From Paecilomyces variotii (lineage: Eukaryota): a stretch of DNA of 64,000 nucleotides. The notes under the pieces are model-generated. The model was given only the letters and a program-made list of their open reading frames with translations. It did not search any database and was not told where the DNA came from. Numbering within the stretch: position 1 is the stretch's first letter; every line of letters begins with the position of its first letter. This document shows positions 30,869 to 64,000 of this stretch, in pieces. The position numbers and the translations under genes were made by a program. Location: assembly GCA_004022145.1 (NCBI GenBank), contig RCNU01000007.1; one strand, written 5' to 3'.

Positions 30869-31199
30869 GCTCGAGCTAGAGATTTTCATACGAGATAACA
30901 AGGTTAATAAAATCACGAAATTGCTTTTCATAAAAAATCAATAGCTAGACTATATTTCTATGTGTATAACATGACCAGTGGGTCCTGCTTCACGTTCAGA
31001 CTGTGATTCCAAGCGACCATGGGGCTGGCCTTTCCCGGACATTCTCGGAAAGAGTATACTAACAATCATTTATCGAGCGCGAACCACAGGAAGCTAGTAA
31101 TAATTCGGTAAAGCTTTACGGCCAAAGAATATCACAGTCCTCGTCTGGCCAGCTCAGTTCTGCCCATCATAGTTTCTCGCGATAGATGGACCTTCAATC

Positions 31200-31672: not shown

Positions 31673-31739
31673 AATACCGTCGCTGATGATGAAGAGATAA
31701 AAGGGCCAGGCTGGTTCGGCTCAAGATCAATTGACAATG

Positions 31740-31787
31740 TAATAACTATCAAGTGTCAACTGCTAATAACTATCAAGTGTCAACTGC
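31740..31787. repeat. Perfect 24-bp tandem duplication upstream of the PhyH-like gene
   Basis: taataactatcaagtgtcaactgc x2. Confidence 0.95.
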
Positions 31788-31846
31788 CAACTTCAAGGTT
31801 AATACCAAATAAATTATCAACAACCAGCTTTTGAGGGCCTAACATC

Positions 31847-34457: not shown

Positions 34458-36106
34458 ATGATGTTTATGAATTTTATGCACGCCAAAGAGGACCGGCCAA
34501 CACCACCAGAAGTTGTAAGCTTATGCCATCTGCTGTGTCAATGGGTTGCCTCTAATATGCATCCTGCTAGTATAACTGGAGGCTGTACTTCACTGTGCTG
34601 GGCCTTTCAACAGCCCTTATTGTTTTTGGCTATGATACCTCATTTATTGGCACAACGCAAACACAGCCCAGCTACAAGCGAGACTTTGGGTTAAACAACA
34701 TGTCAACTAAAGACGCTGACGCTTTCACGAGTAATGTAACAAGCCTATTCTCTGCTGGTGCCTTTTGGGGCGCATTGTTCATGTTCGTTCTGCTTGAGAT
34801 GTACGGGAGGAGAATCTCTGTGCTTATTGCTGATGTCACTTTCATTTTGGGTGCCGTCATTTCCACAGCGTCAGCCGGTAGGAAGTCTATGATGTATGCT
34901 GGACGCGTACTCTCGGGCATTGGGGTTGGGGGCTTCGTGGCCGTTATCCCAACCTATATCTCGGAACTTTCACCGCCAGCCATCCGCGGCCGCATGACGG
35001 GGTTTTTTGAGACCTTCTACCAAGTTGGCTCTCTGGTCGGCTTCTGGATCAACTACGGCATTGAGCGCAATGTTGACACGGAACGGTCCCTCGCATGGCG
35101 CATCCCCATGGGAGTCCAGCTTATTCCCGTAGGCATTGTTGCGCTGACAATCCCCTTCCTCACAGAATCCCCGACCTGGCTGCTGAAGAAGGGAAAGGAT
35201 GAAGACGCATTGAAAGCTCTTTCTTTTCTCCGCAGCCTGCCCGCCACGCATCAATACGTTCTGGAGGACGTCGACTTTATCAAGGAGCAGATTGCCATCG
35301 AGCGTGCCCTGACCATCCGGAGCGGAGCCAAGCCGACATTCTGGGGATCAACGAAAGCTGCAGTTAAAGAAGCCACTATGAAAGGAATGCGCAACCGCTT
35401 CGGGCTAGTGGCTATGTTATGTCTCTTCCAGGCGTGGAGCGGAGCGGTGGCAATTAACTATTACTCACCGACGATCTTCACCTCCATTGGCCTAGACAAC
35501 ACCACTCTCTGGACTGGTATCTATGGCGTGGTAAAATCAGGAGCAGCAATTATATATTTCTCTTTCTTGATTGATATAACCGGCCGTAAGTGGCCTTGGA
35601 TCACGTCCTGCATCGGATGCGCTATTTGCATGTACTACATCGGGGCATATATCCGCATTGCAACACCAAGTGACAGGGCTACAGAAACTAGCTCACAGAT
35701 TGCGGCCGGGAAAGGAGCTGCAGCGGCGATCATGATATTCGGATTCATGTGGTCATTCGGTGCGAACGGTCTGCCACTCATCATAGCATCTGAGATCTTC
35801 TCGCCTAGCGTGCGCAGCATCAGTGGGCCATGGGCAGGAGTCAATGTTTGGCTGTGGTCTTTCGTCGTGACGAAGTCATTGCCTAGCATGTTCAGGGCCA
35901 TGGGGTCTGGGATTTACCTTTGGAATGGTACCATTCTGGTCCTGTCTGCAATATTTGCATTTTTCTGCATTCATGAGACGAAAGGTCTGCGGATGGACCA
36001 GATGGATCAGTTGTTTGGGTCTGTGGCAAACAAGAGTGTTGAATTGAATGCTGATGCCATAGATGAGGAGAAAGTTATTGCTGTACAGATAGAACAACCT
36101 GTTTGA
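34458..36106 (+). CDS. MFS sugar-porter family transporter, quinate-permease-like
   Basis: EDRPTPPEV|YNWRLY (intron 34515-34570), FGYDT, YGRR, YISELSPPAIRG, ESPTWL, INYYSPTIF and HETKG motifs. Confidence 0.92.
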
Positions 36107-36629
36107 AATGGCAGCAATTTTATTCCTCTTTTTTTCTCGGCAGCGTAAAGTACCGAGTGGACCGCAAATTCGGCTGTTTTAGCCTATAGCTTCCTGCATC
36201 TCTAACAGTGAGGCTCCGTAAGTTTTAGAACCTTCGTAGAGAGTCAGCTGTTTAAAAATTTCTTCGGGTTGTATAAAGAGTGCATAAGCAACTCGAATAT
36301 CCTTTTCATTCTATCATTTTTGGATTAGCGCTAGTGCCTTTGTGGACTGCGCTGCACTGCTGCTAGCTATGGTCTTTATCATTCCACTACATACAAAGTC
36401 GATTCTTTTGCCATCCAATCGCCACGATACGTAAGGCTGATTGTCTTCTACATCATCAGATTGATCGTTATTACATGCAGCTTTGGTATTCCCGAGCTCC
36501 AGCCGCCCTCAAAGCCATCTCAGTTGTTTGTAGCATACATTTCGGAATATAAAGCAAGGCGTTATTAACTAATTGGCATCGAATAAACTTGGGCTTTTTA
36601 CGCCTGAGTTACTCGGACCCTGATCCTAC

Positions 36630-37789
36630 TCATTCGTACCGGTAACAAAAAGGACCAGCATGAATGTCCATCAGGTCCCTGGTCGTCCTGTTCTTGCCCA
36701 AAGGACCAAATGTTATCTGATCATCGAGTGTGAGTTCGGGCGAGGGTGGGACATTCTCCAGCGTCTGAGTTCCATTCAACGCATACCTCCTTGTTTTCAG
36801 GTCTATGGCCTGCCACATCCACCACATGCGATCCACCTGCGCGTGATGCTTGGATTCGCTGTCAATATATGTCATGCAGAAGGGGAAAATATTAATAAGA
36901 CATACCAGGAAGAACACAGGATCAGTGGGACTAGTGAATAGATCCGCTCCATTCCCTCCCATCGCGACGTGTCCGCCACCATGAGGACCATAATGGGCAT
37001 CACCCTCACGAGTAGACAAGTAGTTCTGGAAGTCACCGATAGTAGGCTGGGAAAGCAAATCGGCGATACAGCTGTAGTTATTGTTCAGCCGAAGTGCCTC
37101 ATCATTCAAGCCGCGCTGAAAGCAGTTCGGTCTATATTCGAAGGACCAACTGGGGATTGTCCCACTGCCATTGTTTTCGATGTTGTCCATGATGATGCTA
37201 TTGGGAAACTTCGGAAATGGCGAGGTGTAATTGCGGAAAGGCCCTTTGTAAACACACGAGTCGTTCTCTCTACCATTGCTGCCTAACGAGTAAGGACCCC
37301 CATCGAAGATAGTCGAATTCTCCAGCCCGCCTTGCACGTATGCAGGCCAATCCCAGTAGGGCTGGGCGCCTTTGTAGCCGCATTCGTTGCGGAGGGCAGA
37401 CTCGTAAAGCCAGACGTATCCGCGGTGCCATGGCAAGAAAATAGCATCCAGATGGATAATGAAGGTGTAGTTGATGTGCGTCGCTATGAAATCGGCATAA
37501 CGATTCTTTGCTCCTGGATACTGTGTATTGTTTAATCTGGACGGCAAATTCTGGAGGCATGTCACGGCATTGGAATACTCCATGCGCTCAGATGGAGTGA
37601 GATTTGACCTGGATTATGAGTCCGCCAGTCTTAGCATAACTGCTACAGATGTTATTGGGCCACCGACCATTCTTTTCGGACCAGCATTGTCTCGCGTGTA
37701 CAGGCCGACTGATTCGTTGGAGCCCCGGACGTTAGCAGGCTAGGTATGGAGACCCCTAGGAGGGCTGAGATTAAGACGCTTGGTCTCAT
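36630..37789 (-). CDS. Secreted tyrosinase / di-copper centre protein
   Basis: Signal-like MRPSVLISALLGVSIPSLLTSGA and VRKEW. CuA: H..IH...FLPWHR, then QPYWDW. CuB: PHGGGH..SPTDPVFFL|HHAQVDRMWWMWQ. Two introns. Confidence 0.92.
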
Positions 37790-39018
37790 TATGGAAGAAG
37801 GATCGATAGAATGTGAAGTAGCAGCAGGGGAGAAATACTTCTAATGTCGCGACTTGTTGTAGCTGGTGGTATAGGTTCGATGGCTATAACGTCCTTTTAA
37901 TAGTCCGCAAATTTTTTTAAGCCGGTCCCCAAAGCCGGCTGAATCCATCAAAGCCAATAAGCGCACGGTCTATCGGAACGAGAATTAATATCATCCTAAG
38001 GTCTGTACGATTTGGTGAGGGATCTCATGTTCTACTCATGCCTACTCGTACCATTTTCCCGCAAGACTATTATGTATATATATATGTACATGGCACCTGC
38101 TTCGACAGTAGCCAAATCTGTGGACCCATATTGGCTGCAGTATACACGCATCGCCACAGCTTAGTTTACAAGATGCCTAACCAGGTAGTTGCAAGGCGTG
38201 AGCATCTACGGAAGATCTGATATATACGATATCCTCCCAATTGGATCATGAGGCCAGGGGAGCTTTTTACGGGGTGAAATCGATGTTCTGTTGAAAAGGC
38301 TTCTGCAAAGCCGATTTTACTCATAGTCTATGGATCTATAGTGACTAGATACGTACAAAGGCCCTACTTCTCTGATACCCCGCATAGTGCCTGCGGCCTA
38401 GAAAAGGAGAAAGTCAGGCCGATGTCGAGTCGTTTGTTCTGGAATCCCAAGATAGCAGGTCCATTGGAAACAGGGACGAAATGATTACCCGACAGGCGCA
38501 GGATGGTCCTTCCTGTAAGTGCGACGATCTGCGCTACGGGGAAATGTCTATATGCATGCTCATTATATTATTCAAGATTTGTCTGATCAGTGCAGGGGTT
38601 TGGATCTCGGGATACCAACACGAGTGATCACGAACTGGACATGCAGAATTAGGATTAGATACTTAAGCCACTCCGTATGTTCACCAATAATTGACCCTGT
38701 GTCTTAAGGCGACTGGTCAATCTCTAGCAAAACTGCGCCTAGTTTCCCCGTGGGGTGCGGTGGGGCCATTCAGGAGACACCAAGTAAGTACTTACTTACT
38801 CCGCCCCAGAACACATTCTACATAGAGGAATCGGTTAAACTACTTCGGCCAAATATCAACAGATCACTGTGATTATGTTTTATTGCTCAACATCTGTTAA
38901 TCGTGCCAGGGTATTTAGTAGTAGAAGGTACCAGGAAGTATTGACAGGTGAATCGGCATTTTTCTCTTGTCGGCGACTTGGGCTTGTAAAGACAGTTTTC
39001 GTTGCGGATTCCTGAAAC

Positions 39019-40308
39019 ATGAATCTTACTATGGTGTCTATGTTGCAAGTTTTGCTCCTGTGCACCACTGCGTGTGCTACTTCCCTTTATGTTGCATCTT
39101 CTTCAGGGAATATTACACTTCTCTCTTTGACGTACGACTACTTCTCCTCGACCGGATCATCTGATTTTGTTGAAGACGGTTACTTTGCCGGTTTTGCGCC
39201 GAAAAAAAGATACAATCTCTCGGTCGTCCATACCTTCAAGACACCTGCGCAGAGTCCAGCATGGTTGACCTTGAATGAACACAACAACATTCTTTACCTC
39301 ATCGATGGCGTGACGACCGGCAACGGAACCCTTACTTCTTACCGCACGAGTTCTCATAACGGTACAGGTCCTCCTATTCAGTTAGATAGTGTAGAGTGCC
39401 TTCTTGACGGGGCCGCCGCCGACTTTTATGCCAATGGGAAGGCTCTTGCTGTGGCGCATTACACCAGCAGCGCTTTACAGACATACGATGTTACCGCTTC
39501 AAACGGCACACTCAAGCTTCTCCAGACGTTTACGTACAAAATGGCCGAACCAGGACCCGCCGGAGAGCGCCAGGCCGCACCACACATTCATGAAGCGCGT
39601 ACCGACCCACTAGGCGAATACTTGCTGGCGATTGATCTCGGAGCCGACCTTGTGCGTGTATATGCTATCGATCACGATTCTCTCCTCTTAGATGAGCGTG
39701 CAGCACTCAAAGCCACCCCGGGGTCCGGGCCACGACATGGCGTGTTCACACAAGATCCAATTCTCTTCCCCGATGGTATTGCAAGTTACGTGTTCTATCT
39801 TGCCGCTGAGATAGCGGGCACCATCACTGCCTACCGTGTGACTTATCTGCCTGACTTGGGAGGCCTTCAATTCGACTTACTTCCGAATGGCACATACTCT
39901 TCGTTGGAACCAGGAACCCCCAAACCTGACACCGGGGGGAAAGGAATTACAGGTGAGCTCAGGGTAAGCCCAGACGGCGACTTTCTAATTGTGAGTAATC
40001 GCCGTGATGCGCGCTTCAATGGCACCGCAGCTCAGTATCCACCGGATGGGAGGTCGGACTCGATGTCTATTTTCCGGATTCGACAGGATCTCGCCGGTAA
40101 GCTTGACTTTGTGCAAGCTTCTCCCGCCGGTGGCTTGATGGCCAGGACCTATGACCTAAATTCAGCTGGAAATCTGGCAGCTGTTGGGATCCAGGAGGGA
40201 TCACGAATCACCATCCTGCAGAGAGATCTTGGGTCTGGCTTGTTTAGTGAACAAGTGGCAGAGGTTGACGTTGAAGGCGAGATTTGGGCCGTTATCTGGG
40301 ATGACTAG
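39019..40308 (+). CDS. Secreted 7-bladed beta-propeller lactonase (6-phosphogluconolactonase / carboxy-muconate cyclase family)
   Basis: Signal peptide, RQAAPHIHE, DLGADLVRVY, PGSGPRHG and SPDGDFLIVSNR. Intronless. Confidence 0.9.
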   Translation: MNLTMVSMLQVLLLCTTACATSLYVASSSGNITLLSLTYDYFSSTGSSDFVEDGYFAGFAPKKRYNLSVVHTFKTPAQSPAWLTLNEHNNILYLIDGVTTGNGTLTSYRTSSHNGTGPPIQLDSVECLLDGAAADFYANGKALAVAHYTSSALQTYDVTASNGTLKLLQTFTYKMAEPGPAGERQAAPHIHEARTDPLGEYLLAIDLGADLVRVYAIDHDSLLLDERAALKATPGSGPRHGVFTQDPILFPDGIASYVFYLAAEIAGTITAYRVTYLPDLGGLQFDLLPNGTYSSLEPGTPKPDTGGKGITGELRVSPDGDFLIVSNRRDARFNGTAAQYPPDGRSDSMSIFRIRQDLAGKLDFVQASPAGGLMARTYDLNSAGNLAAVGIQEGSRITILQRDLGSGLFSEQVAEVDVEGEIWAVIWDD

Positions 40309-40976
40309 ATAAGCACGGGATGACCCTATACGATCTAGGTAATTGTAAGATCTGCAAGATTCCGTGAAGATTCCTTCTCAGAGCCCTGTCTATCAATACT
40401 TCATTAGAATACTTATGTTCAGAGCAAAAATATTTTAAAAGAACCCTTGAACTAGTACCCATGTTTTAGCATCATTGTAGTAAGTTCTTTACAGTCATAG
40501 CACATGCTGTCCGACAAACTTTCCATTAGAAACGTAAGGTGACCAAACGTTACCAGATGTGTGCAGTTTATAATGGAGAAGCTATCGATAGTCAAAAGCA
40601 TGCCTAGCCCTCAGCAAGCACCTTTTATTTATGCAAAGGGAGCAGATATAGATGTGGCCTATGCTATTATCAGATGTCCTCTTTGAGAATAATTCATCCA
40701 TGGTTGCTTACTCTCTCTGCATGACAGAAGGTGAAACGAGAAATAAGTAGTCTGAGCACTCTCATTCTGTTTGCGCAGTGATACAAGAAAGATCAGCATC
40801 CAGAGCTATCGGTTAAACTCTGTGAGTTTTGCCGCTGGTTCTGTGGGGAATTCATTTCCCAGAAGCTCTGAGAGAGTGACTTACCTTGAAGAACCTGCTT
40901 ATCAGTGAATGAGGAAAATAAAACAAAATGAAAATAAAAATAAGCAAAACCACGTCAGTGCTACTAACTTAACAGT

Positions 40977-41628
40977 ATGCCAGAAATGGCTACTGTTGTA
41001 CATCATCATCACCAGCTTAATGCATCATTCAGCCAGCTCCGCTCAGACTGAAATGTCCTCAGGTTGACATTGATGTACGACATTTATTACGCATACCCGA
41101 GGACTACGTTCTTTAAGATGAGGCCGAGAACGAGTCTGAATACTTGAATCTCGATGTGACTGTACCATCCGATACAGGACCTGGTCAGGATTTGCCAGTT
41201 TTCATATGGATACATGGTACAATGTATGAAACTCAGCTATATCACTCATTCATATGTTGAAATTGGATATAGGCGGCGACGCAAGCCATTACTTTCTGCT
41301 CCGCTGCCTCGGGAATATATGGTCAGAGCTATCTAGCTGTTATTGCGCAAGAACTGCTGACTAAAAACGTCAATCAGATACGACCAAACTAGTTGCAGAT
41401 TCAATATCCTCGGGGCATCCCTTTATCACAGTAGCTCCAAACTACCGACTCAATATTTTCGGTTTTGGGGATGGAAATGGATCAGGGAAGATCAATTTGT
41501 CCTTGAAAGATCAAGAACTGGCTATCTATTGGGTAAGGAGGCATATTTCTGGATTCGGTGGCGACCCTGTAAGCAAGGCACTGCCTGATAGAGACGTCCT
41601 AGTAGTCACCTCGGACTCTTATTGTAGG

Positions 41629-41660
<32 letters not shown>

Positions 41661-42606
41661 ACTGTGCGGAGAAAGTGCTGGAGCAACATATGTTCACGCG
41701 CACTGGAACTCCCGTGAAGAGAGCTATACTTATGTCAGGCTCGCTATACCTTTCGCCCCGATGCCTCGTTTTCGTGGCGAGGAAATGTCGAGGTTTTTGA
41801 GGCGCGAGCCCATGAATTGGAGGATAAATCTCTTCGCGAATATAGCCAAAAGGCCTTTCAACAAATCCTTACTGAGAATAATATCTCCCGCCGTTGAATC
41901 CAAGAAGAAGATATCCGCACCAATTGGGAAACCAAACAAGAACAGGTTGAGGAATTGTAGTGGCTGCGATTATTCAATTCAGGTGGTTGCTGCCATAATG
42001 AAATCTAACATTTCACAAATAGTCCGCAAGCGGGGTTTCCAGGACCTTGCTCCTGATGGAATCATATCCATTTTCACAGATACAAATATTGAATTGGACA
42101 CCAAACTACGCAAAGCGCACGGTATATCTCCAAACCGTCCGACGCCCAACATACTTGACGCGTTGGACTTTGTCCATGATGTCGAATATACTCTTCCGAT
42201 TGAGCATTTGTGTAAAAAGCTTGCTACCGCCAATAAAAGGGTATACCGATATCTCCTCGACGAGCCGAATCCATGGCAACAATCTGCTCGTGCTCACTAT
42301 GCAATTGACTTGATTTTCTTATGTGGGGGTATTGATATATCGCATAAATCTACAGCGGAAAGGGTGGATAGGGAGATGAGAAGGAGATGGGTTATTTTCA
42401 TTCATTGGGAGAGTCCGTGGGGAGAAGTGTCTCCAGGAACCACGTTTGCTTTTGGTCCATATGGCGAATGTGAGGAGCCCAATGAAATGAGATACATGAC
42501 ACGGAGAAGAATTTATACTCTCAGCTTATCGAGAAAAGCTGGAATTGAATCATGTGCAGCAATCGCTAATGCATTGGTGACTGGGAGCATGAATCTGCTT
42601 AACTAG
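40977..42606 (+). pseudogene. Type-B carboxylesterase pseudogene
   Basis: EYLNLDVTVP, LPVFIWIHG, NYRLNIFGF, GFGGDP and GESAG are present. There is an in-frame TAA at 41114-41116. The motif PVKRAILMSGSLYLSP lies in a different frame from GESAG. A 31-A tract sits at 41629-41659. Confidence 0.85.
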
Positions 42607-50480: not shown

Positions 50481-53162
50481 TCACTTCAACAAACCAGGCC
50501 AACTCTCCGCGAACAAGTCGGGGAAAAGAGAGCCGTCCAACCCAGACCCAAAGTCAAACTCCGTCTGGGAATTCAGGTTCGCTGTCTGAAGCGCAAAGGT
50601 GAACGCATTGGTAGGACTCGGCTCAGACTCTTGCGTGGCAGCTAGGGACTCAGGTAGACGAGTGCTCGCATGCAGTTGGCCTTTCTGCTGCGATGAATGC
50701 GCTCCAAGTCGGTGTACTTGTGGTTGGTGATTGTTTTCTGATGTGCCTTGGCTGGCAGTCACCAGCCTAGGTACCTGATCCAACCGCGAGGAGACATTCG
50801 GCGAATCTCTGGGCTCTTGTAAATCCCTAGCACTATCCACAGACCGAGATGGGGAGGTCTATAATTTTTTCAAGAAAAAGACTTCAGTGTCATTCATTAC
50901 CAACCCCGCTTGGTGTTTTCGATAAGGACAACTGACCGTACTTGGTAACCTAATACCTTCTGCGGCACTGGCATCTGGGGCTCCAAGGAGCAACGTCTGC
51001 CCGATCGAGAGCAACCCTGGCCCTTGATTCTTCTGTGACACCTGCTGCATATAGCTATCCATGGCGCTGATCTGAGTGCGCAACTTGATGGCCAGCCCAG
51101 CGGAGGGTAAACGGGACGACTCGATCTTTTCGAGGAAGTCGGCGAGAAGGAGGAGAATGTTGTGGACTTGGATGTATCGCCAGGCTGATAACGGTTTACG
51201 AATTGTGCTGCTAAGCAGCTGGCCGACGTGGGAGAGGTGGTGAAGCTAATAGGAGACAAATAGTCAGCTTGAGTGGATGATAGCTAATGGAGAATGTTTG
51301 GAGACCCACCGAGCTTGTGCTGACAGTCTGGAAGAACTCGAGGGGCACGACGCTGAGTTCATCGAGTAAATCGCTGGCAATATCGCAACAGCGGTTGATG
51401 CTTGGCTGCTCGCTCTCGACGATAAGCATTTTCATGTTCTGCGTTGTGAAGAGAATGTTGGCGGCTGTGGGATTCGTCAACATGAGTGGTAATCGTGGCA
51501 GCCAGGTTAAGCGTACATACCAACAAAGCTATAGCGGTCAGTAGACAGGTCTCCTGTCAAAGTTTTGACCGATTTGAGCACCGGTGGTAGGTCCTTGTGC
51601 GCCTTCGATATAAAATGGAGACTATCCGAGGCGAAATCCCTTGGGGGTCGAACACCGGCAATCAATGTCTCAATCTCACTGCTGCTTTCATTCGTCGTCT
51701 TCGTCTTCCCTTGTTGTTCCATGTGTTTTGCGGCCCGGATGTGCTCTAGGAGGCGATATAGATCGCTGCAGAAATTCCAGCCTTGGAGAAAAGAAATCTG
51801 ATCTTGACGAAGGTTGATCTGGGTGGCGGTGATATCCTCATCGTCAAATACCTCAACAGGATAACGAACCGATCGATTTGCCTCGCTCTGCCTAGCAGGT
51901 AGACCGAAGTTGCTGGCGATGTATTGCTCTTGCTGGTATACAGCCCAGAACTGCAGAAAAAGACGTTAGCAAGGGAATCCCGCTGGTCGCTAGCCAGGGC
52001 CGTGTTCTGAAAGTAACCGAAGATTGTTCAACATGAGTAATCTCACCAATCGTCGCCGTTCTTGTTTCTCGATTTCTGATAAGTTATTAGGCCATCTGCT
52101 TTCGGTGTAGAACCCATTCAATATGGACAGCGAGCTGTAATCCCCAAGGTGGGTGATGGGCCCTCTGAGATCCCCGTTTTGGAGACATACCGATGCTAGC
52201 AGCGCATGTGCTTTCATCGCCTGGCAGTAGTCTGTGATGGCGGTAAGGTTTTTTGGCATTGCTCTTACTGCTGCAAAATAGCATGTAGAAGACAATGTCA
52301 CTGCATCGGAACGAAGGCCTTCCAGGTTGTGAGTACTCGGTATGCCATTGTACAGTCGCCCGGCTGTAAGGGCACAGACGGCCATTGTAACAACAAAAAC
52401 GCCCCAGTCCGACCGGTAGAGCTGGTTAGAAATCTGGGCGCGGAAAGTAGGCCAGTGGAAGTAGGGTCGACTGAACGGTAAGGATACCGAAGTAAGCATA
52501 TAGTGCCCTGCCAACGAATGAAGAGTGCGAGATATGCTTACATGGGGTATATGGTATGATAAAAGACATCCACGAGGGCTTCAATGGTGTCGGGTGGGAT
52601 CACACCTTCGTATGCGGAGTAAATTGACGAGAGCTGCGTAGAGAGGCCGGCCTCACTGCCGTCAACGGGACTCACTTGGATCGGTGAAGCCCCGGTCGGG
52701 GCAGGGGCTGGTATCCCCGCCGTATCCTCCATTGCGACGGTGGGCTGTCGTGGAGCAGGCTGGGTCGAAGGCACCGGAGAAGAAGCATCGCTCTCTCGTG
52801 CGACTCGCCGGGCCGGATTGGGCTATCTGGTGTATTAGTTGGCGAGAATAGAGAAGGAAGAAAAGTGCAAATTACCCCTCGTCGCTTAACCGGCCTGTCG
52901 TATGTACACTCCAATCCTTGATCTTTGCAACGAGCGCAAACCGTTCCTTCGACTCCGGGCGAACACTGCGAGGCACCGTGAGTAATTCAGTCAAGTCTAC
53001 AAAGTGGCCAGCTCGTACTCTGCAGGCGTTCCGATGACACCGATCGCATGCGCGCTGTACACGAAGTATACATTAGTAACACGTCGTGCCATCCCTGATT
53101 CAAGTCACGGTTCGTAGACTGACGCCGCTTCTCTTTCTTTTGCTGCCTCCACAAACGGTCAT
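50481..53162 (-). CDS. Zn(II)2Cys6 transcription factor with fungal-specific TF domain (paralog 2)
   Basis: KRKRSG|RACDRCHRNACR|CSPGVEGTVCARCKDQGLECTYDRPVKRRG; PYFHWPTF and EIEKQERRRL|FWAVY. Start codon inferred. Confidence 0.88.
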
Positions 53163-54344
53163 TATGCCAGGTGTAGACGAACGGGGTTTCAACACAGACG
53201 GTGGAAGATGGACATGCTGATGTGGTCGCAGCTTCGGCTGCCGGGGCGGAAGAACCTGGTCAGGTAAGAAGGAAAACGAGTTCAACCGACTCCCCGGCGC
53301 ATGGTTGATGCCTTTTAATCAACGAAATCAGGACCAGAGCTAACTACTCCGTACTCCGTGCCAACATATTGCGGGGAAATATGTGGAGAAGCGCGGGGGG
53401 CCGATCATGGTCCACTGATGAATGGAGCTGCCAAGTACGGAATAGGAGTTAAAAGGGACGAGATTGCATGAGAGTAGAGGAATTTGACGAGCGGTGATTC
53501 GCAGCGTCTCTCATATGGTATAACTAGAGTCTTGGCCCCAATATCCCAATACCCATCTGGGTACTTTCCACAACCCTGGACCTTGCAGAATACTGCAAAT
53601 GTAATATTTGGATATACATACTAAGTACCTATTCAAGATTCCGCGTCGGAAATTTGGCGCAGAATGTAACTGCACTGGGTATGGATAAAGATTAATAGTT
53701 CTCTCTCTTCTCGCTTAAGCACTGGAATCAAATATCCAGCAGCAAGGATCCTACTGTATCTATTCCTGTTATCTGAGATATCTAGGATTTATATCAATTA
53801 GGATTTGAAGGGCCTTTGCGCCCGCATAACTGTCCTTCAGCGGTTACGCGTTCCCTACAATAGCTGCTAAAGCCGCACAAGTCGTATAATATATCTGGCA
53901 TTGCTTGCCGCAGCGAGTTATGATATGCTCTCTCGGATTGTTATGTCTATCTCGATCTTTCATCTTTCATTTCGTCCCATATTGCTTGGATAAGGTTCGG
54001 GTCTCTGGCGAATAAGGTAACCGATGAACAATCTCAAACTTTTACTACTTATGGTATTCTTGGGCGATCGGATAAGATATATCTCTGAATTCTTGAGACT
54101 GCTTATGAGTGCTTGATTGAGGATCGAGTCTAGAGATGCTTTAGCTAGCTAATTAATTCCAGGTTGGCTAAACAGGCTGGTGGGCAGGAGACTAGTATTT
54201 TAAGTAAGGCCCCGAAAATATATAGCTTAGAGCGCAATCTTGTATCAGCATTCAGGAGTGGTTCAAATCGAGATATTTATCAATCACAGCAAATATCATC
54301 TAGCAATAATATAATCTCGTAACCCTAGAGTACTGTACCGAAGT

Positions 54345-55373
54345 TCACTGAATAATTCTGTTCTTGACTCTCCCAATCCCCTCGATTTCAATCTCCACCA
54401 CATCGCCGTGCTTGAGGAATTTGGGCCCCCCTTTCTGGAAACTCCCAACCCCAGACGGCGTGCCCGTCATCACAACGGCTCCCTTGCGCAATGTCCGACC
54501 TTGACTGAAAAATCGAACGATCGCCGGGACATCAAAAATCAAATCATCGATACCCGACTCTTGTCGCTTCTCGTTATTCACCCATGTGCGAAGTGTGAGC
54601 TTCGCAGGGTCTGGAATGAGCTTTGACGAGACGAGAACAGGTCCAAGAGGGGCAAACCCGTCGAAGGACTTCGCGTAATTCGATTGTCCGCCTTTAGCCG
54701 CTTCCTGCCACCATCTGCTCGAGATATCGTTGCCGATGGTATATCCTAGGACATGGAGGAGGGGGTCTGCATCCTCTGCGATGTCCTTGACATTTTCACC
54801 CATCACGAACACTAACTCTCCCTGGTGTGGATTGTTAGAACAGTCCAGTCCCATCGGATAGAATTATGTACCTCATAGTCCACATCAAGCGCCGCTGAGT
54901 GTAGATGGACGTCATCGTACGGACCCGTCATAGCATCTGTGACGATGTTAATCCTCGAGTCGACGCAGTCTTGTCGGCTCAAATCACTGACCGGGATACT
55001 TCACGAAGGTCTTGGGATGTTGTGGAATAGGAACCTATAGTATCGTCAACAAACATTCGGCAGTCTTTCGAGTGCAATGGCCGCACTTCTTGGTTGAGGG
55101 GCATACTCCTGCTTCTTCGGCGTGCCGTCTATAGTTCAGGCCGACGCCATAAATGAATGGGACATCTACCAACGGACTCAGAAGCTTTTTGACCTCAGAA
55201 TTCTCGCCACTAAGCTTGAAGTCCGGATCAAAAGGCGACGCGCCCTGGTATACAGGCGCCTCGATTCCTATCAGACTCTGGTTGTAGGGGTGGTCCTTAG
55301 GGACCTCGCCAAAGTAGATATCCCCGGATGAACTGACAAACCGTATCAAACGCTCAAACTTCGAAGAGGCCAT
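54345..55373 (-). CDS. Fumarylacetoacetate hydrolase (FAH)-family protein
   Basis: GVGLNYRRHAEE, DYE|GEL, GYTIGNDISSR, KSFDGFAPLGP, MTGTPSGVG and EIEGIG. Several introns. Confidence 0.92.
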
Positions 55374-55933
55374 TGTAGCAAGATGCGAAGATATTCTTCT
55401 AGACCTTCATCTATGTGGATAGAGCAGAACTTATATGCAATGAGACCAGCGCCTGGACAGGTTGCGTGTTGCCTAATTCTTCCGAGCTCACAGACTTCCA
55501 CCGCGACATTCGATAAGTTCTTTCCCCCGGTTGGAAAAATCGGCCAGACCTGGGGTATTCTAGCATGCGGTTTAGCCGACGTAATTATGGTATCGTCTCG
55601 TTGCACTTTCAGAAACGCCGGACAGGGACGTGGAGTGAATCTGATAAACTTAACCCATTCGGCCGGATTTCTTGTCTCCTGTCAGGATAACTAGAAGACA
55701 GCTATTGTGATTCCCTACGATCCGGGTACATGCTATATGATTACCTGGTCTAGGAAATTATGTTCTGGGCATTGATCCGACACACAGGAACAAACAGTTG
55801 CCTGTTAGCGGGCCTCTCAGCATCGCTTTATACAACTGGGAATGCACTTATGTGGATGCAAGGCACACTGGTACAGTAATAATTGCAACTGTGCGATTAA
55901 TACAAAGCTTCAGAAGACAATCATAGAACTTTC

Positions 55934-56905
55934 TCATCTCAGAAAGCTACCATTTGTCTTCGCGAGAATTTCATCGTAGTACGGCTGAAACCCAAGCCAC
56001 CCCTTTTCAGGCCCTCCAACCTGTGCAGCCGTGTACTCTGCTTCGGCTTCTTTAATGATAACCTTTTCATGGCCACTTCCATGTTGCGCTGAATCAACAA
56101 GAAGCTGAGCATGGCAGGTCTTCTCCAGGCTGATGAACCAGAATGCGGCCTCGTCAATACTCCTACCTACCTGGGGAAGGTCAGTAAAGATACACGGCGT
56201 AAAGCGGACGGCTCTTTCCTCACCGTGAGTAGTCCATGATTCTGCAGTATTGCAGCCTTTCCCTTACCAAGTGCTTTGGCAATACGCTTGCCCTCCTCTC
56301 GGTCTAGGACCACGCCTCCGAAGTCGGTGTACACGGCGTGGCTTTTGTAGAACCGCAGAGCATCCTGAGTAATCATATCCAGTTCTCGGCCAAAAACACT
56401 GAAAGCCTTTCCATGAACGGAATGGGCATGACACGCAGCGTGGATATCTGGCCGTGCCTTGTGTATTTCGGAATGGATAGCAAAAGCCGCAGCATTAATC
56501 GGCTCTTCTCCCTCTACCACCAGACCGTTCTCATCGACAAGGATCAAGTCTGACACTTTTATCTGGGAAAAATGCATTGAAAGTGGATTCAGCCCTGTGA
56601 CATTGGATCAGAATTATTGACGCTCCTAGGGAATTCCACGACGTAGACGGCGTACAGAAGTGGTCAGTCAGAATTGGATCGCGGACCGAAATATGACCTG
56701 CAATCCCCTCATCGAACCCGCGCTCAGCAAATATACGGAACGCAGCAGCTAGATGTTGCTTGCGGTAGAGCCTTTCTTCATCTAAGGTCCCAAAAACAGG
56801 ATACGAGCGGATTCTGAGTTTGTGACCGTTCTTGGACAAGCCGAGTGCACCAGACACAGCATTGGTGTTATCCTCGTTCTGGAGAACCGTAGCAGAGGGG
56901 GCCAT
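55934..56905 (-). CDS. Class II aldolase/adducin-family protein (Mug14/NovR-like)
   Basis: GFDEGIAGHISVRDP, IHSEIHKARPD, ACHAHS and ILQNHGLLT (metal-binding His residues). Two introns; ends ..KTNGSFLR*. Confidence 0.92.
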
Positions 56906-57556
56906 CTTGGACAGAAATTATTGACGGATTGGATAAGAGACACAGTCAGTGTGATAGCGGAAATGGTGTTGAAGCCATAGGCTATGAAAACTTGACCATC
57001 CCGGCTCTTTATCCCTTCGCGATGAGGCGGACAAGACAAACTAACCGGACGCTGCTGGGGAATTTTAACGACCGGCTTTACTATTGAATATACATGGCGC
57101 CCACACGTGGAGCCCGTTACATAGCATAGGGGCCGCATTGGTACTGCTCCTGCTCTGTGAACAACGCTTTTGGTGCCCCAAGCCAACCTCGCCCCTGGAT
57201 CTACGTTCTCATCCAGATCGAGTTACGCCGTAGGATCAACCGGTCTCTTAAGATTTGCCGGACTTTGTGCGCCCAGGACAAATCCATCAGAAACGGAGAC
57301 AGAGATTTCCCAGCTCATACGGGGCTTCTCTGATTCTGACGTTTCCGATCATATTGTACATACCATACCTCGATAGGCCCACCTCAGGCCGTTCTAGTTG
57401 TTCACTCAATCCTCGACCTCGCCAGTGATATTAGGCTACAGGAATCTTCCAGCAATTTGATTGCACTATGGTATAATGGGATAAACATTCAGCAGAGTCA
57501 GGAACTGATACTCAAGCATATGGCTAACGGCCGCTCAAGGGAGATACACCTTTCGC

Positions 57557-58589
57557 CTATTTCTTCTCTGCTAATCCCTCCCTAACAGCAGCAGCGAGAT
57601 CGTCCGCCGTGGTTCCTCTTACTCGGTGCTCCTGTCTCTCCTTTCCCAACACTGTTTGCTCTGCTACTGCTCTGTAGACCTCGGCCACCCGCTGGTAAAC
57701 ATCCGCGCCTTGAGTCCCCCCAGCATTATCCCACCCACCTTCCTCCCCAAAGCACCGTCCAATTTCCACCATTTCATCCACCCACCGACCTGCCTTGGGT
57801 GGAGTCTCAACAATCATCTTTGTAATACTGTTCCGCAACCTCGGTTGAAAGGCTTCAAGAAGCTGATGCAATTCCGAATACACGCCCATGGAATATGCCG
57901 TGCTAAAAGATTGGATAGACAGTGCAAGAAGACCCTTGATCAGCGATCCATAGCAGCATTTGAGCCCACTTGCAGCCCCAATATCCGCACCCAGGGATAT
58001 CGTGTTCAGCACCTTCGCTAGACGTTCGTTGGCCAGTCCGTCTGGACCAGAGATCGGAATCGCAGGCCGCGCCCAGGTAGCAGCGATGTCCCCTTCGGGT
58101 TCAGAAGCCTGTTTCTCATTGGAGCTTGACTGCTTCAAGCGCGGAGGCCCGCCGATAATACCACCATCAACGAATTTGATACCCGGTACGTTCTGCTTGA
58201 ACTCCGCAGCAATGTGACGTGCAAGTCTAGGGCTGATAGCGTTCAGGTCGACGTAATACAACGGACTCTTGCGAGCTTGCTTGACTGACATGAACCGTTG
58301 TGCTGTAGCGAGGGCATCGCGTGGGGGGACGATCGAGAAGAGATAGTCTACCTGTTTGACAAGCTCTTCGTCGCTGTCGAGTAATCGGATATTTGCTGTG
58401 CGGGCGCGATTGTAAGTGTAGTCGCTGTGACTGTTAGAGCGGGTTTCTGCGTGGTATAGTTGAACACTTCACTCACCTTCTACCCGTAATATTGGTCATA
58501 ACGGTGTATCCATGGGCGCTGAGCAAATTTGCGATGCCAAAGCCCATCTCCCCAATGGAGACAATACCGACTTTCACAGGGGCGGCCAT
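57557..58589 (-). CDS. NAD(P)-dependent 6-phosphogluconate/3-hydroxyisobutyrate dehydrogenase-like protein (DUF1932 type)
   Basis: VGIVSIGEMGFG Rossmann motif, SIVPP, YVDLNAISP, DGGIIGGPP, GAASGLKCCY..KG and KAGRWVDEMVEI. One intron. Confidence 0.88.
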
Positions 58590-59098
58590 AGTGTTCGCTT
58601 TGTGAAGAAAACAGCAACGAGCTTGTAGGGGGCTGATGAAAGTTGGGGATTTTGTTTATTTCCTTGGATCTATCCGGGGTTTTATGACACCTTAATGTAC
58701 ATTAGTGACCGCTTACAACACCCAGGATTGGCGGTTTCGCGAAGAGCAACGAATTGGCACTTGCGCCCTTGATAGGGCCGACCTGTTAAACTACCGGCTA
58801 TCTATGAGCTAGGGAGAACAACAGTTCCTCCGTAGTGTAGTTGCTAAACGGAGTGGAGGTCGGCGAACATGAGCCACACTAGTGACATTCAGGCTTTGTA
58901 ATTGACCGCCAGCGACTATCGAGTACTCTATGTAGGACCATCTTCACAGGAAGAGCTTCATGGTCATTTGTTGCTAAATGCCATTGCGCCTGAGCCCCAT
59001 ATCCAGGTATAAATTTTGTGGGGTTTCGCATTCTGAATTGTACCAAGGCTTCCTGTACACCATTAAGTTCATACGTGCGCAGACAGCTTTCCTTGGTG

Positions 59099-61333
59099 AT
59101 GTTGTCATTCAGTTTTTTCCTGCTAGGTCTTCTGGTGGCCACTTTTGGTAGGATCTCTGCCTTTCAACAGGTCAGACATGATGCCTTATTTCAACCACAC
59201 TATATACTGCGCGTCACCGAGGAAGAAACCAGCATTGCATGTCGCACAAGGCTATCTGCGCTTGTCAATGGTATGTTTTGCCTGTGTGCTGCAGGAGCGC
59301 GGCATGCACTCTATCCTGTATTATTTGGAGGATGTTGGATTCTTATAGCCTATATCACAGGAACGACACCGGGTCCAACCCTCTATATGAAGGAAAACCA
59401 AACTACATGGATTAGGGTTTACAATGCCATGAACTCCTCTAATCTAACCATGGTACGGTGAAGAGCCTCTCCGTGGAGTGACCAGTCCAGCTGATTAGAT
59501 TGTTAACTCCAAAGCATTGGCACGGCATATCGCAGTCAGCTGCTCCATGGTCTGACGGAACACCTCAGGCCAGTCAATGGCCTATCAGTGTAAGATTGAC
59601 TTCTCAATCACTGCTCTGGAACCTTGGAAATGAAGTCTGAGACTGAGGAAGCCCGTCAAAGCCCCATCACTTTTTCGACTACGAAGTGCGGCCGAAAATA
59701 GGCGAAGCCGGTTCATACTATTACCATTCCCATGTCGGTTTTCAGTCTGACACCGTTGCGGGCGTGTTGATCGTCGAGGAGGCTGATGGGTTGCCGCCAT
59801 ACGAATATTATGAAGACCGTGTCCTGTTTCTCTCCGAGCTCTTCAATGTGACTGACCAAGCAGCAATGGACTTCCTGCAAGGTCCATTTGTGAGCTACAA
59901 ATGGTACGTTTGTCTATACAGACGCATAGATGCACTCGTCCGTTTGATTGACCAGTAGCACTATTTAATACACAGGCCTGGAGAAGCGGAATCAATACTC
60001 GTGAATGGTAACGGATATCGTGCTCGAGACGGTGAAGACTCATTGGTCTCGAAGCCTTATGGTAAATTCGACCCTGGAGTGCTGCGACCCTGCCGCCCGG
60101 AGGTTATCGAGGTAGAGCAGAGCAAGGTTTATCGATTCCGCGCCATTGGGGGTGTCGCAATGAGTCCTTTAGCTTTCGCCTTTGAAGATCACGACAATCT
60201 TACTATCATTAATGTTGACGGGGCATACACCGAGCCTGCAAACACTAGCCTCATTCAGCTCGGCGGCGGACAACGCTACGACTTTCTCCTCGAAACAAAA
60301 TCAGAGCAAGAATTGAAGGCACTAGGCAGGACAAAGTTTTGGATACAGATCGAGACGCGCTACAGGAACTTAAATAACACATTCTACGCTATCCTATCTT
60401 ACAAGACAGACCTGGGTCCGAATGTGAACAGCACGATCCCGGCTGAGCCCCCAGCTGAGAAGCCTGTGTTCATTCCTTATGCTCTGGAGGACTGGTTGGA
60501 GTATAAGCTGCAACCGCTGAAACCAAATGGCTTCCCAACAGCCGACCAGGTTACTCGTCAGGTCTATCTCACATCTACACAGCTTGTTGTCAAGAGTGGT
60601 GCATTTTGGACAGTTAACAATCACACCTGGACAGAGAATGACCAGCACGAGCATGGGGATCCATACAATGATACGGCTCCGTCTGCTGATGTACCTTACC
60701 TAGTTGATATTTATCGACGTGGTCAGAGCGCTATTCCGAACTATGATTTAGCAGTTCAAAAATATGGAGGATGGGATCCTGGGCTAAATGTGTACCCAGC
60801 ACGCAGAGGCGAAGTTATTGATATTATCCTTATCAATAACAACAACAACCGGAGTGGTGGGTTTGACACCCATCCCTGGCATATCCATGGCGATCACATC
60901 TATGACCTTGGTAGTGGCCCAGGAGAATACAACGCCACTGCTAATGAAGAGAAACTCACCGGGTACACTCCTATCAAGCGAGACACCAGTCTACTGTACA
61001 AATATATTACCGGCGACGGAGTGGGAACGAATACTGAATATACACCTCAAGGATGGCGTGCCTGGCGGTTAAAGGTTGACAATCCGGGGTAAGTAAACTT
61101 GCAGACAGTTCATGACATGCATGTACTAATCTCCCTTCAGAGTGTGGATGATACACTGCCATGTTCTTCAGCACATGATTATGGGAATGCAGGCATTGTG
61201 GGTTATGGGTAATGCAACCGAAGTCACACACAACACTGGACCGAGTCTTGTTGAGGGCTATTTGAACTACGGTGGCAATGCGTATGGAAACAGCTCCTAC
61301 GATCCCTTGGTCAACCATTACTTTAGTGATTAA
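59099..61333 (+). CDS. Secreted multicopper oxidase, fungal ascorbate-oxidase-like
   Basis: Signal peptide. All four Cu motifs are present: HWHG, YYHSH, HPWHIHG and HCHVLQHMIMGM (Met axial T1 ligand). Several introns. Confidence 0.93.
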
Positions 61334-61688
61334 TTTTGCGTAAATAATGAGATACACATGCAGACTCTCATAAAATGCTAGATTTATTGGAACGCCCATT
61401 TATATTTCAAAGTGCTTCTGCAACAGACTCAAAAGGATTGCACAGTTAGCGTATGTAATTGCTGTTTTATGTCATAACATTGTAATCCTGGTTTAAGTGA
61501 CCACTGGCTTTCATCTTTAAGGCAATAGCTCCTGCGGACTTTATAATTTTAATATAGTTTCTATGCCAGGGCATTTTGAACTTGTAGCTACTCGAACTAT
61601 AACGTCAGATACCGTGGCAGCGAACCTAATTCTCTACCAAATCCGAGGGAAAAAGTATTGGGCTCTTGAAACCAAATACGGTTTTCCC

Positions 61689-62561
61689 CTATATGCTTTC
61701 TTTGATTGCGTCCTCGACTTTCATTCCCCTCATAACCCGCTGCATCTTAGTCTCATCATCCACTGCAAACTTAGGGGCCATCTCCAGCACTAAACCGAGC
61801 TTGTCCTTTGGAATGCAAACAGCACAGCCGTCTTCCGGGTCAAGCATGACAATGTCTCTCTAGGAAAGACATTAGCACACCAAAGATACCAATAAGAATC
61901 CATTATAGCAGAACAGCAAGTGTGTTTCTCTCACCTGCTCAACTCTTGTGCCTCCAATATGAATCGGCACGTTAACTGCATGCGCTCTACACTCCCCCCT
62001 CGTTGCCACGATGCTCGTTGCCCGCGCCCAGACCGGGATGTCCACCAGTTCCCTAAGTTGCTTCACATCTCTTACCCGTCCGTCGACCAGTATACCCTTC
62101 ACTCCGATTTTCCTCATGCGCGCCGCCATGAGCCCGCCCATTGTGGCAGTCCTCGTGCCCCTAGGCTGGCTCATTACGACAATTGTATCGGGGAGGGCCA
62201 TGTCGGCGTAGATCGATCCATCGGGGATATTGGAGTCCGGGGTAGTACTAAAGTCCGATGGGATGAGAGTGGGGAAGGAGGGCGACGCTCTTGGGACGAA
62301 GAGAACTGTCACTGCTGGAGCGACCACTTTGTTCCCGGTGTTTATGGGCCCTTCGACGGTTAGAAAAGTAGACAACCAACTTAAGTACGGTGTCTCTCAG
62401 GACCCATACCAATGTCAGGGAGGAAGCCGGCGCCCGGAACGCCCAAGGTCAGCAGCGCGTCAGAGATCTACGTCGATTATGAGAAAGGTTCCAGGGACTA
62501 GGGTCTGTATTCATACCTCGCATGCCGAGTAGTTCAGTAGTCTTTCCAGTTCCTCGTTCAT
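61689..62561 (-). CDS. RraA-like / HMG(CHA)-aldolase family protein
   Basis: NYSACE|ISDALL, VVAPAVTV, ATMGGLMAAR, GILVDGRVRD, PVWAR and DIVMLD. An in-frame upstream ATG at 62615 is also possible. Confidence 0.88.
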
Positions 62562-62940
62562 TTTTACTCGGCCAGCCAAAGGTCGAAATGGCCAAGGTGT
62601 GTCTTTTTCTGGCATCGTGTAAAACGGATTGGCAGAAAATGACTACGTCGTAGACACTTATGCTGGCTCTCCCGCCGGTCAGCTCAGAGGGGTAGGAGGC
62701 GAGTTTAGCCGATTAGACTTGAGTCCCTGCTGCTAAATCCAAAGGGGCTTGTCATTCTGAATACCGGCTATTGCAATGGCCCGGTCGACCACCGGAGTGC
62801 TTCATATTCGGTTTTGATGATTACGTAGAGTCAATATTGGATACAAATCTGCGAGACGGCAAGCCTTTGTGCCGCGATCTTTCTGGAATTGACACTACTG
62901 TACACCATTTTCCCGCCACATCAAGCAGTCATCAGTCGTA

Positions 62941-64000
62941 CTAAGCATGGTCAAGAGGCGACGGTCCAACATCAACCTCGACCGTAAAGATCCTTATCGG
63001 CTTCTCAATCTGACTCGTTCCATTATGCCACTGCATGGCACGATTGAACTGGGCAGCTGGAAGCCACAGTCGGTTCCGCCCATCAAGCCACATTCCGTCC
63101 ACCCAGAGAAGACGAGAATCATGTACAAAAATCTCCGATTTCCCGTCGGGGGATATTCTCAAGATGTTCTGGCGGTCCGTGTCACTCAGGTAGATGTTGC
63201 CTCTGGCGTCGATGGCCGTGCTGCCGGTTGAAGGCGTATGCGAGAACGGCTGGATCCATTTTTCCAGTTCAATGTCGGGAAACGAGGTGTTGCGCAGTGC
63301 CTGGTTCAAGTACTTGGTAGGGATGCGTGACATGCCTCCTGCTGTGGGCTGAAAGTAGAGATATTGCCCATCCGGGGAAACTTCAAGTTGGTCGACATAG
63401 ATGAAGTTAAATCCGCCCGTAGAGTTACGCATCAGACTGCCCTCCCCTGACGTGGGCATGTATTGTTTGAGCGCCAGCTGGTTTTCTAGGAGTCGTCGCC
63501 CGGTACCTGTGACTAGGTCTATCACTATGATGCTGGCGGCTCCTGCATCGGTAAGGTATGCTATGCGCCTATTAAACCGGAAGTCATCGAGAAGGCTGGA
63601 AGGAGCAATCAAGTCCGCAAATGGATAGATACGGGTCACTTTGTTCGTTGAGATATCTATCGTGACCAGCTTCGCACCGGCAGGATGAAGGGTTCCGTTG
63701 CTGGCGAGACCATTGTCAAGCACCCATAACTGGCCATCAGGACCGATTCGTTGGGCAGCGACATTGACAAATGTATTGGCCGCGTCTCGAGTGCTCTCGA
63801 AAGAATTCCAGGCATTACTTGGATATGGGACGAAGGAGTTGTTCTCGTAGCGCTCAACGAGCAGCGGTCCAGTCGAGCCATCGAAGCGGTTATACAGGAG
63901 GAAAATGCGGCTACTGTCGGGCACAATGCTAAACCCAGTTGTTGGCGAATCGATCTCCAAACTGTCTATGACGCTGGGATTCTGAGCGACTGCTGTTCGG
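62941..64000 (-). CDS. Major royal jelly / Yellow-family beta-propeller protein (5' end beyond window)
   Basis: LWVLDNG, KLVTIDISTNKV, AYLTDAG..IIVIDL, DQLEVSPDG, GNIYLSD and RLLWVDGMW. The frame stays open to the window edge. Confidence 0.88.
   Translation of the reverse strand, partial: RTAVAQNPSVIDSLEIDSPTTGFSIVPDSSRIFLLYNRFDGSTGPLLVERYENNSFVPYPSNAWNSFESTRDAANTFVNVAAQRIGPDGQLWVLDNGLASNGTLHPAGAKLVTIDISTNKVTRIYPFADLIAPSSLLDDFRFNRRIAYLTDAGAASIIVIDLVTGTGRRLLENQLALKQYMPTSGEGSLMRNSTGGFNFIYVDQLEVSPDGQYLYFQPTAGGMSRIPTKYLNQALRNTSFPDIELEKWIQPFSHTPSTGSTAIDARGNIYLSDTDRQNILRISPDGKSEIFVHDSRLLWVDGMWLDGRNRLWLPAAQFNRAMQWHNGTSQIEKPIRIFTVEVDVGPSPLDHA

Follow-up and report, generated by a model that had tools for sequence, protein, structure and literature searches.

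We analysed a 64,000-nucleotide stretch of the genome of the filamentous ascomycete Paecilomyces variotii (GenBank assembly GCA_004022145.1, contig RCNU01000007.1; hereafter the window) and found that five intron-bearing fungal enzyme genes with intact frames lie side by side at positions 54345-62561, the lower limit being the stop codon of a gene for an FAH-family enzyme and the upper limit the ATG of a gene for an RraA-like (DlpA-type) protein. Intron-exon models were drawn from a three-frame reading and then checked by script, and families were called by Pfam, which places all five families at this locus, in agreement with the five contiguous genes of a preliminary description of this DNA. 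Splicing was read from X1, a public sequencing run with contigs that match the locus at 99% or more, which is presumed to be RNA because its contigs are spliced, as RNA would give.

Gene models, layout and transcription

The FAH-family gene (54345..55373, minus strand, 283 amino acids (aa); PF01557, E = 1e-47) has three introns, of which 54822-54871 is predicted, 54937-54991 is seen in X1 and 55035-55106 is supported by homologues. Next to it lies the gene for a class II aldolase-fold enzyme (55934..56905, minus strand, 285 aa; PF00596, E = 8e-28; introns 56171-56223 and 56595-56655), followed by that for a DUF1932 NAD(P)-dependent dehydrogenase (57557..58589, minus strand, 326 aa; PF09130, E = 7e-17; intron 58425-58476). 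A multicopper oxidase with three Cu-oxidase Pfam domains is encoded on the plus strand (59099..61333, 628 aa; introns 59271-59360, 59453-59514, 59590-59661, 59904-59975 and 61089-61140), and the RraA-like gene closes the row (61689..62561, minus strand, 229 aa; PF03737, E = 1e-19; introns 61860-61934, 62351-62409 and 62468-62516).

The FAH, aldolase-fold and dehydrogenase genes have one common orientation, as had been proposed, with ~560-650 bp between neighbouring coding regions in this part of the locus. The dehydrogenase and the oxidase are divergent, their ATGs (58589 and 59099) being separated by an intergenic region of 509 bp (58590..59098) that presumably acts as a bidirectional promoter. 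The ~510 bp that these two genes were said to share therefore stand as an intergenic region common to both, and a coding overlap of that length is wrong. The oxidase and RraA-like genes converge, again as described earlier, with 355 bp between their stop codons.

Spliced X1 contigs cover all five genes, showing that they are real, contiguous and transcribed in one same sample. The contigs display 11 joints with GT..AG ends, 10 of which fall on model introns. Both introns of the aldolase-fold gene are seen, a contig runs across 57481-58635 at the dehydrogenase, three oxidase introns appear as joints and the other two as loose ends, and the deepest contig coverage of the locus (83) is found at the RraA-like gene. 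At FAH intron 55035-55106 a lone contig (depth 3) takes a donor at 55086, 20 nt downstream, giving an intron of 52 nt and not 72 nt; the modelled exon structure is backed by tblastn of two homologues (P0263 and P0278), and the splice at 55086 may represent a minor or unproductive isoform. Runs X8, X11 and X14, which come from three other studies and are also presumed to be RNA, gave no contigs on 54000-63000, which is not a sign of silence.

Conserved linkage and the extent of the cluster

Gene order in other fungi was inferred from consecutive locus tags or accession numbers. We found that the dehydrogenase and RraA-like genes are adjacent or 2-8 genes apart in seven named species. In P. variotii they carry the tags DTO195F2_5703 and DTO195F2_5705, with the oxidase between them in this window, and the same order is present in Pestalotiopsis fici (dehydrogenase PFICI_02461, 64% identity; oxidase PFICI_02462, 57%; RraA-like PFICI_02463, 56%). 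Since Pestalotiopsis belongs to the Sordariomycetes and Paecilomyces to the Eurotiomycetes, two different classes, this shared order is unlikely to be due to chance. In two strains of Aspergillus tubingensis the pair has adjacent tags (dehydrogenase 010681 and 007527; RraA-like 010680 and 007528, respectively). The two genes are five apart in both A. violaceofuscus (PYI21805 and PYI21800) and A. japonicus (XP_025529056 and XP_025529051), where no oxidase was among the matches listed, six apart in Penicillium malachiteum (XP_056943564 and XP_056943558), where no oxidase could be placed nearby, and eight apart in Penicillium herquei (KAJ5627473 and KAJ5627465), where an oxidase (KAJ5627474) adjoins the dehydrogenase. 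One further instance of all three genes, with an oxidase at 71%, is probably carried by a single 17,025-bp contig.

The oxidase thus joins the pair in three named species, P. variotii, Pestalotiopsis fici and Penicillium herquei, and the pattern across species indicates a conserved core consisting of the dehydrogenase and the RraA-like gene, with the oxidase as a frequent, not universal, companion. Linkage in distant species, which characterizes metabolic gene clusters, is observed for the core pair in seven species and for the oxidase in the three named ones. Additionally, the RraA-like clade is rare, with 11 of 134 candidates matching at E ≤ 0.001; for the dehydrogenase, 14 close entries at 56-100% identity, its own included, precede a drop to 51%; and the close dehydrogenase relatives come mostly from the same species as the RraA-like relatives. 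On balance, and with about even confidence, we read the locus as an expressed accessory metabolic cluster of a filamentous ascomycete that acts on a 2-oxo or hydroxy acid, having the DUF1932 dehydrogenase and the RraA-like clade as its core; in several species a predicted secreted multicopper oxidase of the ascorbate oxidase family would join this core, and in P. variotii the genes for the FAH enzyme and for an enzyme resembling the decarboxylases TqaM and NovR (the aldolase-fold enzyme) would extend it, lying directly alongside.

A number of observations weigh against this reading. Within fungi, no oxidase separates the core genes of A. tubingensis, the 120 matches listed include no close oxidase of this species, of A. 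japonicus or of A. violaceofuscus, and closer oxidase relatives occur in Talaromyces species, where no core genes turned up. A search with an FAH exon against representatives clustered at 50% identity returned A. hiratsukae, Penicillium pulvis, Penicillium tannophilum, Penicillium glabrum and Fusarium oxysporum as the nearest named species, and no named match from a core-holding species among the 10 looked up of 150 listed; because of the clustering, this search neither supports nor excludes linkage. At the level of transcription, the FAH donor at 55086 breaks the frame, and expression was seen in one sample only, which does not amount to co-regulation. Furthermore, none of the 7-10-mers occurs in every one of the four promoter regions: k-mers present in at least three of them number 11 for 7-mers (shuffled mean 7.2) and 1 for 8-mers (shuffled mean 0.44), and the 509-bp dehydrogenase/oxidase region shares k-mers with the other three promoters no more than shuffled controls do.

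The linkage that the preliminary description proposed to look for in fungi and bacteria was found in fungi only, for the core pair and in part for the oxidase, and the bacterial and metagenomic loci also count against the preferred reading. Relatives of the aldolase-fold enzyme belonging to the PRK06208 family, at 62-71% identity, were located in Bacillota, Burkholderiales, Actinomycetota, Acidobacteriota and cyanobacteria, and none of their 79 loci (L001-L079) contained relatives of FAH, DUF1932, RraA or the oxidase within 10 kb at E 1e-5. The neighbours in these loci vary, including SDR, aldehyde dehydrogenase, 2-hydroxyacid dehydrogenase and arginase-family genes and an SSF transporter. Dehydrogenase homologues were detected in 8 of 401 sampled Pseudomonadota genomes, with no other cluster family within ~9 kb at any of the 8 loci. 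The other families were also absent from all 49 metagenome loci of distant RraA-like genes (26-52% identity), 20 of these loci being under 4.5 kb long; here a Yme1-type protease and an MFS transporter turn up repeatedly as neighbours, which indicates that these RraA-like genes are a different paralogue.

Several of these results bear on whether the functional unit comprises only the dehydrogenase, the oxidase and the RraA-like protein, the FAH and aldolase-fold genes being unrelated neighbours that happen to be co-oriented. Conserved linkage is seen for those three genes only, the closest FAH representatives belong to species outside the core-holding set, the aldolase-fold family is widespread and closely related to bacterial proteins that are found apart from the other families, and a promoter motif in common was not detected. 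On the other side, the FAH, aldolase-fold and dehydrogenase genes are tightly packed in one orientation, spliced contigs of one run cover all five genes, and the core pair of A. japonicus, A. violaceofuscus and both Penicillium species encloses 4-7 genes that could include members of the FAH and aldolase-fold families. We consider this narrower unit rather unlikely, and the five-gene cluster built on the dehydrogenase/RraA-like core remains our preferred reading.

Properties and likely activities of the five proteins

According to the preferred reading of a five-gene cluster, the cytosolic enzymes would interconvert and cleave a 2-oxo or hydroxy carboxylic acid. The dehydrogenase is identical over a 244-aa exon to a P. 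variotii entry (P0012) that also bears PF03446. Its AlphaFold model has a predicted local distance difference test score of 91.7, and the best Foldseek matches are 4ezb, 1i36 and 3qsg, structural-genomics DUF1932 proteins without assigned function, followed by the folds of HIBADH, tartronate semialdehyde reductase, serine dehydrogenase and imine reductases at 15-19% identity. A protein atlas search returned only unnamed DUF1932 clusters. The analogy drawn earlier with LtnD of bacterial threonate catabolism does not hold, as HIBADH-type enzymes pair NAD_binding_2 with NAD_binding_11 and the C-terminal domain here is PF09130, no NCBIfam model matches the protein, and the likeness to HIBADH-type structures (15-18% identity) is one of fold only; an identity as LtnD or HIBADH was accordingly rejected. 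A conserved N-R-S stretch that follows strand 2 may point to NADP(H) as the cofactor. The enzyme would reduce or oxidise a carbonyl or hydroxy partner, its fold relatives acting on semialdehydes and beta-hydroxy acids.

The RraA-like gene model agrees in length and termini with a homologue (P0001) and is 92% identical to it over the large exon. The best solved relatives are 5x15 (E = 3e-10), labelled 'putative transferase' and presumably a Streptomyces RraA homologue, and then the HMG/CHA aldolase 3noj of P. putida (E = 3e-7). Within HMG/CHA aldolases an Arg-Asp in a G-x-x-R-D stretch forms the catalytic/metal pair; in the fungal protein 'dgrvrdv' aligns with 'dagvrdt' of 3noj, and R128 and D129 are invariant in nine relatives. 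The protein thus resembles LigK/GalC/PcmE in belonging to the same family, PF03737, and in keeping the Arg-Asp stretch. An identity as LigK, GalC or PcmE was nevertheless rejected, with P0001 scoring 60.1 and 60.7 bits vs cut-offs of 304.5 (TIGR02798) and 179 (NF006731). The LigK/GalC analogy is further weakened by the absence of ring-cleavage genes alongside, and, in a departure from the loci of those aldolases, a ring-cleavage dioxygenase or hydratase was not found among the 43 open reading frame (ORF) pieces scanned in the window (26-64 kb). We consider it a putative 2-oxo-acid aldolase/decarboxylase, which would catalyse metal-dependent retro-aldol cleavage or beta-decarboxylation to give pyruvate.

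For the aldolase-fold enzyme, a 136-aa exon that makes up about half of the protein scored 201.6 bits against PRK06208, the subfamily cut-off being 255. The best solved relatives are PDB 9ryg, named 'Decarboxylase NovR' (E = 6e-35), and TqaM (9m09, E = 2e-34); alignments to 9ryg, 9m09 and 4xxf keep HxH and NHG, and the HxH...H metal histidines are aligned. TqaM is a three-His non-heme iron enzyme that oxidatively decarboxylates alpha-hydroxy acids with one O2, according to a 2026 review (PMC13351049). The fungal enzyme is like TqaM, NovR and CloR in having ~50% identity over a 119-aa core, in its retained histidines and in its length (285 aa vs 275-313), and unlike TqaM in that its identity to bacterial PRK06208 proteins without assigned function is higher (62-71%) and that the TqaM partners TqaL and TqaF are missing among the ORFs scanned. 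An identity as OtnC was rejected, the same half-length exon scoring 26.7 bits vs the NF043034 cut-off of 250, and the OtnC analogy of the preliminary description gives way to PRK06208 and the TqaM/NovR oxidative decarboxylases as nearest relatives. Sequence comparison places the enzyme nearest to metal-dependent oxidative decarboxylases and away from the sugar-phosphate aldolases, and it is probably itself metal-dependent. It would remove one carbon from an alpha-hydroxy acid in a metal-dependent, possibly O2-dependent reaction, and not act as an aldolase. This corrects an annotation trap, in which the label 'class II aldolase' misleads on the likely function. In 10 of the 79 bacterial loci a D-2-hydroxyacid dehydrogenase adjoins the aldolase-fold gene, which fits a dehydrogenase/decarboxylase couple. 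Separately, the 62-71% identity across bacterial phyla is unusually strong conservation for a family without assigned function, and in Peribacillus the PRK06208 gene occurs with an arginase-family gene, an SSF transporter, a D-2-hydroxyacid dehydrogenase and a sigma-54 activator.

The FAH enzyme has HpcE (1gtt, E = 3e-34) as its best solved relative. Its 169-aa exon scored 99-110 bits vs equivalog cut-offs of 276-811 (HpcE/HpaG and diketo-deoxy-rhamnonate hydrolase), and judged from these scores the enzyme is nearest HpcE and the diketo-acid hydrolases at the family level (PF01557) only. It would carry out the decarboxylation, isomerisation or hydrolysis of a 2-oxo-dicarboxylate. A cluster of FAH sequences at 90% identity (P0263) has members from Aspergillus hiratsukae as well as from several Penicillium species (pulvis, tannophilum and frequentans/glabrum), and this high identity across genera may reflect recent gene transfer between fungi.

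We also observe that the FAH and RraA exons both match NF009399/PRK12764, a bacterial model of 501 residues. An uninterrupted FAH-RraA fusion (744 bits) was found in one of five genomes searched, that of a Streptomyces, where it adjoins HpaB, a DHDPS-family protein, an aldehyde dehydrogenase and a glyoxalase-fold protein. One Streptomyces contig holds both arrangements, the fusion in its operon and an unfused FAH and RraA pair beside DHDPS, SDR and amidohydrolase genes (L137, 9072-10180; L138, 9289-11364). The Paecilomyces locus is similar to this operon, which is of the 4-hydroxyphenylacetate/homoprotocatechuate type, in bringing the FAH and RraA families together, and differs from it in that the fungal genes are separate and non-adjacent, with identities of 35% for the FAH part and 28% for the RraA part. 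At the level of families, the fusion operon sets a precedent for FAH and RraA proteins cooperating on aromatic ring-fission acids. With the bacterial L-threonate/tetronate pathway (LtnD, OtnK, OtnC, OtnI) the likeness extends to superfamilies only, namely the beta-hydroxyacid dehydrogenase and class II aldolase folds; the locus is unlike it in the OtnC score, in the DUF1932 character of its dehydrogenase, and in having no kinase among the 43 ORF pieces.

The oxidase bears out its earlier label 'ascorbate-oxidase-like'. A homologue identical over 540 aa (P0132) reaches 564 bits against the fungal L-ascorbate oxidase model TIGR03390 (cut-off 445.35), a model whose cut-off is also passed by the cluster oxidases of P. 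fici and Pen. herquei. The copper motifs HWHG, HSH, HPWHIHG and HCHxxxHxxxGM are all present, at residues 89, 135, 493 and 570, and the hydrophobic, signal-peptide-like N-terminus predicts secretion. The protein is therefore like fungal L-ascorbate oxidases of the TIGR03390 kind, among them Acremonium ASOM, in its model membership, its four copper motifs and its secreted look. Its reaction would take place extracellularly, with an enediol or a phenolic precursor as substrate. Af_AO1 of Aspergillus flavus prefers ascorbate (Km 0.16 mM) over 2,2'-azino-bis(3-ethylbenzothiazoline-6-sulfonate) while oxidising both, and its authors call the physiological role of such enzymes unclear (PMC7460845). 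Another multicopper oxidase of P. variotii, McoA, lies in the HEPHAESTUS element and gives copper resistance (bioRxiv 10.1101/2020.03.06.981548), which makes a metal-oxidase role possible for the cluster oxidase as well.

These properties bear on the proposal that a secreted ascorbate oxidase starts ascorbate or sugar-acid catabolism and that the cytosolic enzymes degrade dehydroascorbate, diketogulonate, threonate-type or ring-fission acids to pyruvate. The proposal draws on the TIGR03390 membership, on the preference of Af_AO1, a member of the same family, for ascorbate (PMC7460845), on the divergent promoter region between oxidase and dehydrogenase, two genes that lie side by side in P. fici and Pen. 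herquei too, and on HpcE, the best solved relative of the FAH enzyme, being a homoprotocatechuate pathway enzyme; its ring-fission variant has in addition the Streptomyces FAH-RraA fusion. It is opposed by the failed OtnC, LtnD and LigK membership tests and by the 43 ORF pieces, which include neither a tetronate kinase nor a ring-cleavage dioxygenase, an absence already remarked in the preliminary description, and, for the ring-fission variant, by the family-level nature of the Streptomyces similarity. The A. tubingensis core pair, without an oxidase between its genes, also weakens the idea of a route started by an extracellular oxidase. We regard the ascorbate reading as attractive but unsupported and speculative, and its probability as low. 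Slightly less probable still is its fullest form, a new fungal pathway in which the oxidase would oxidise an enediol or phenol outside the cell, most obviously ascorbate, and the resulting acids would be taken up and dismantled by the DUF1932 reductase, the RraA aldolase, the FAH enzyme and, shortening an alpha-hydroxy acid by one carbon, a TqaM-like iron oxygenase. If true, this would provide the first physiological role for fungal ascorbate oxidases and for the DUF1932 family.

Genomic surroundings and significance

The GC content is 0.16-0.31 over the first 26 kb of the window and ~0.47 in the gene-dense remainder, and the AT-rich block (1-26000) looks like repeats degraded by repeat-induced point mutation. 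Beside the FAH gene, at 50484..53259 on the minus strand, lies a gene for a probable Zn2Cys6-type transcription factor, which shows the second half of a zinc-cluster motif, CxxCx6C with a basic stretch after it, at ~52938; its ORF pieces had no Pfam match at E 0.001, and it is a candidate regulator of the cluster. Further genes upstream encode a methyltransferase, MFS transporters, a 2-oxoglutarate-Fe(II) oxygenase (28115-29157, minus strand), a sugar transporter (34571-36103), a tyrosinase (36633-37613, minus strand), a seven-bladed beta-propeller lactonase (39016-40305), of a family that includes fungal carboxy-muconate cyclase, and a carboxylesterase-family protein (41365-42603). The phenol- and lactone-type genes at 28115-42603 might form an aromatic/phenolic island together with the cluster. 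On the other flank, an MRJP/yellow-like gene (62941-63999, minus strand; PF03022, E = 2e-14) directly flanks the RraA-like gene and is cut off by the end of the window.

This neighbourhood raises the alternative that the five proteins serve as tailoring enzymes within a larger cluster for a secondary metabolite or pigment, maybe tyrosine- or DOPA-derived, the rest of which would be found on both sides or past the window end. The methyltransferase, MFS transporters, Zn2Cys6-like factor, tyrosinase, 2-oxoglutarate-Fe oxygenase and MRJP/yellow-like gene would suit such a cluster, as would the patchy species distribution and the natural-product pathways from which the relatives TqaM and NovR come. 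However, no polyketide synthase, nonribosomal peptide synthetase or terpene synthase was present among the 43 ORF pieces, and lower catabolic pathways are where FAH and RraA-like proteins typically occur. We judge this explanation improbable, and retain the accessory cluster acting on a 2-oxo or hydroxy acid.

A literature search returned no paper on the cluster, on the four-family combination, on PFICI_0245x/0246x or on DUF1932 biology (supplements of genome papers lying outside the search), none combining 'RraA-like' with a fungal gene cluster or HMG aldolase with Aspergillus and 6PGDH, and nothing relevant on DlpA among the 10 matches listed of 1,363. Although undescribed, the locus is nothing unusual in kind, being an accessory metabolic gene cluster of a fungus. 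To our knowledge, fungal ascorbate-oxidase-type oxidases, DUF1932 dehydrogenases and fungal RraA-like (DlpA-type) proteins have no established physiological role. If the substrate is ascorbate-derived or a plant phenolic acid, the locus would represent a new fungal catabolic route, and if not, one more uncharacterised accessory cluster. Overall, a compact transcribed cluster that is partly conserved across ascomycete classes offers, in five genes and a neighbouring regulator, a handle on three families without a role.

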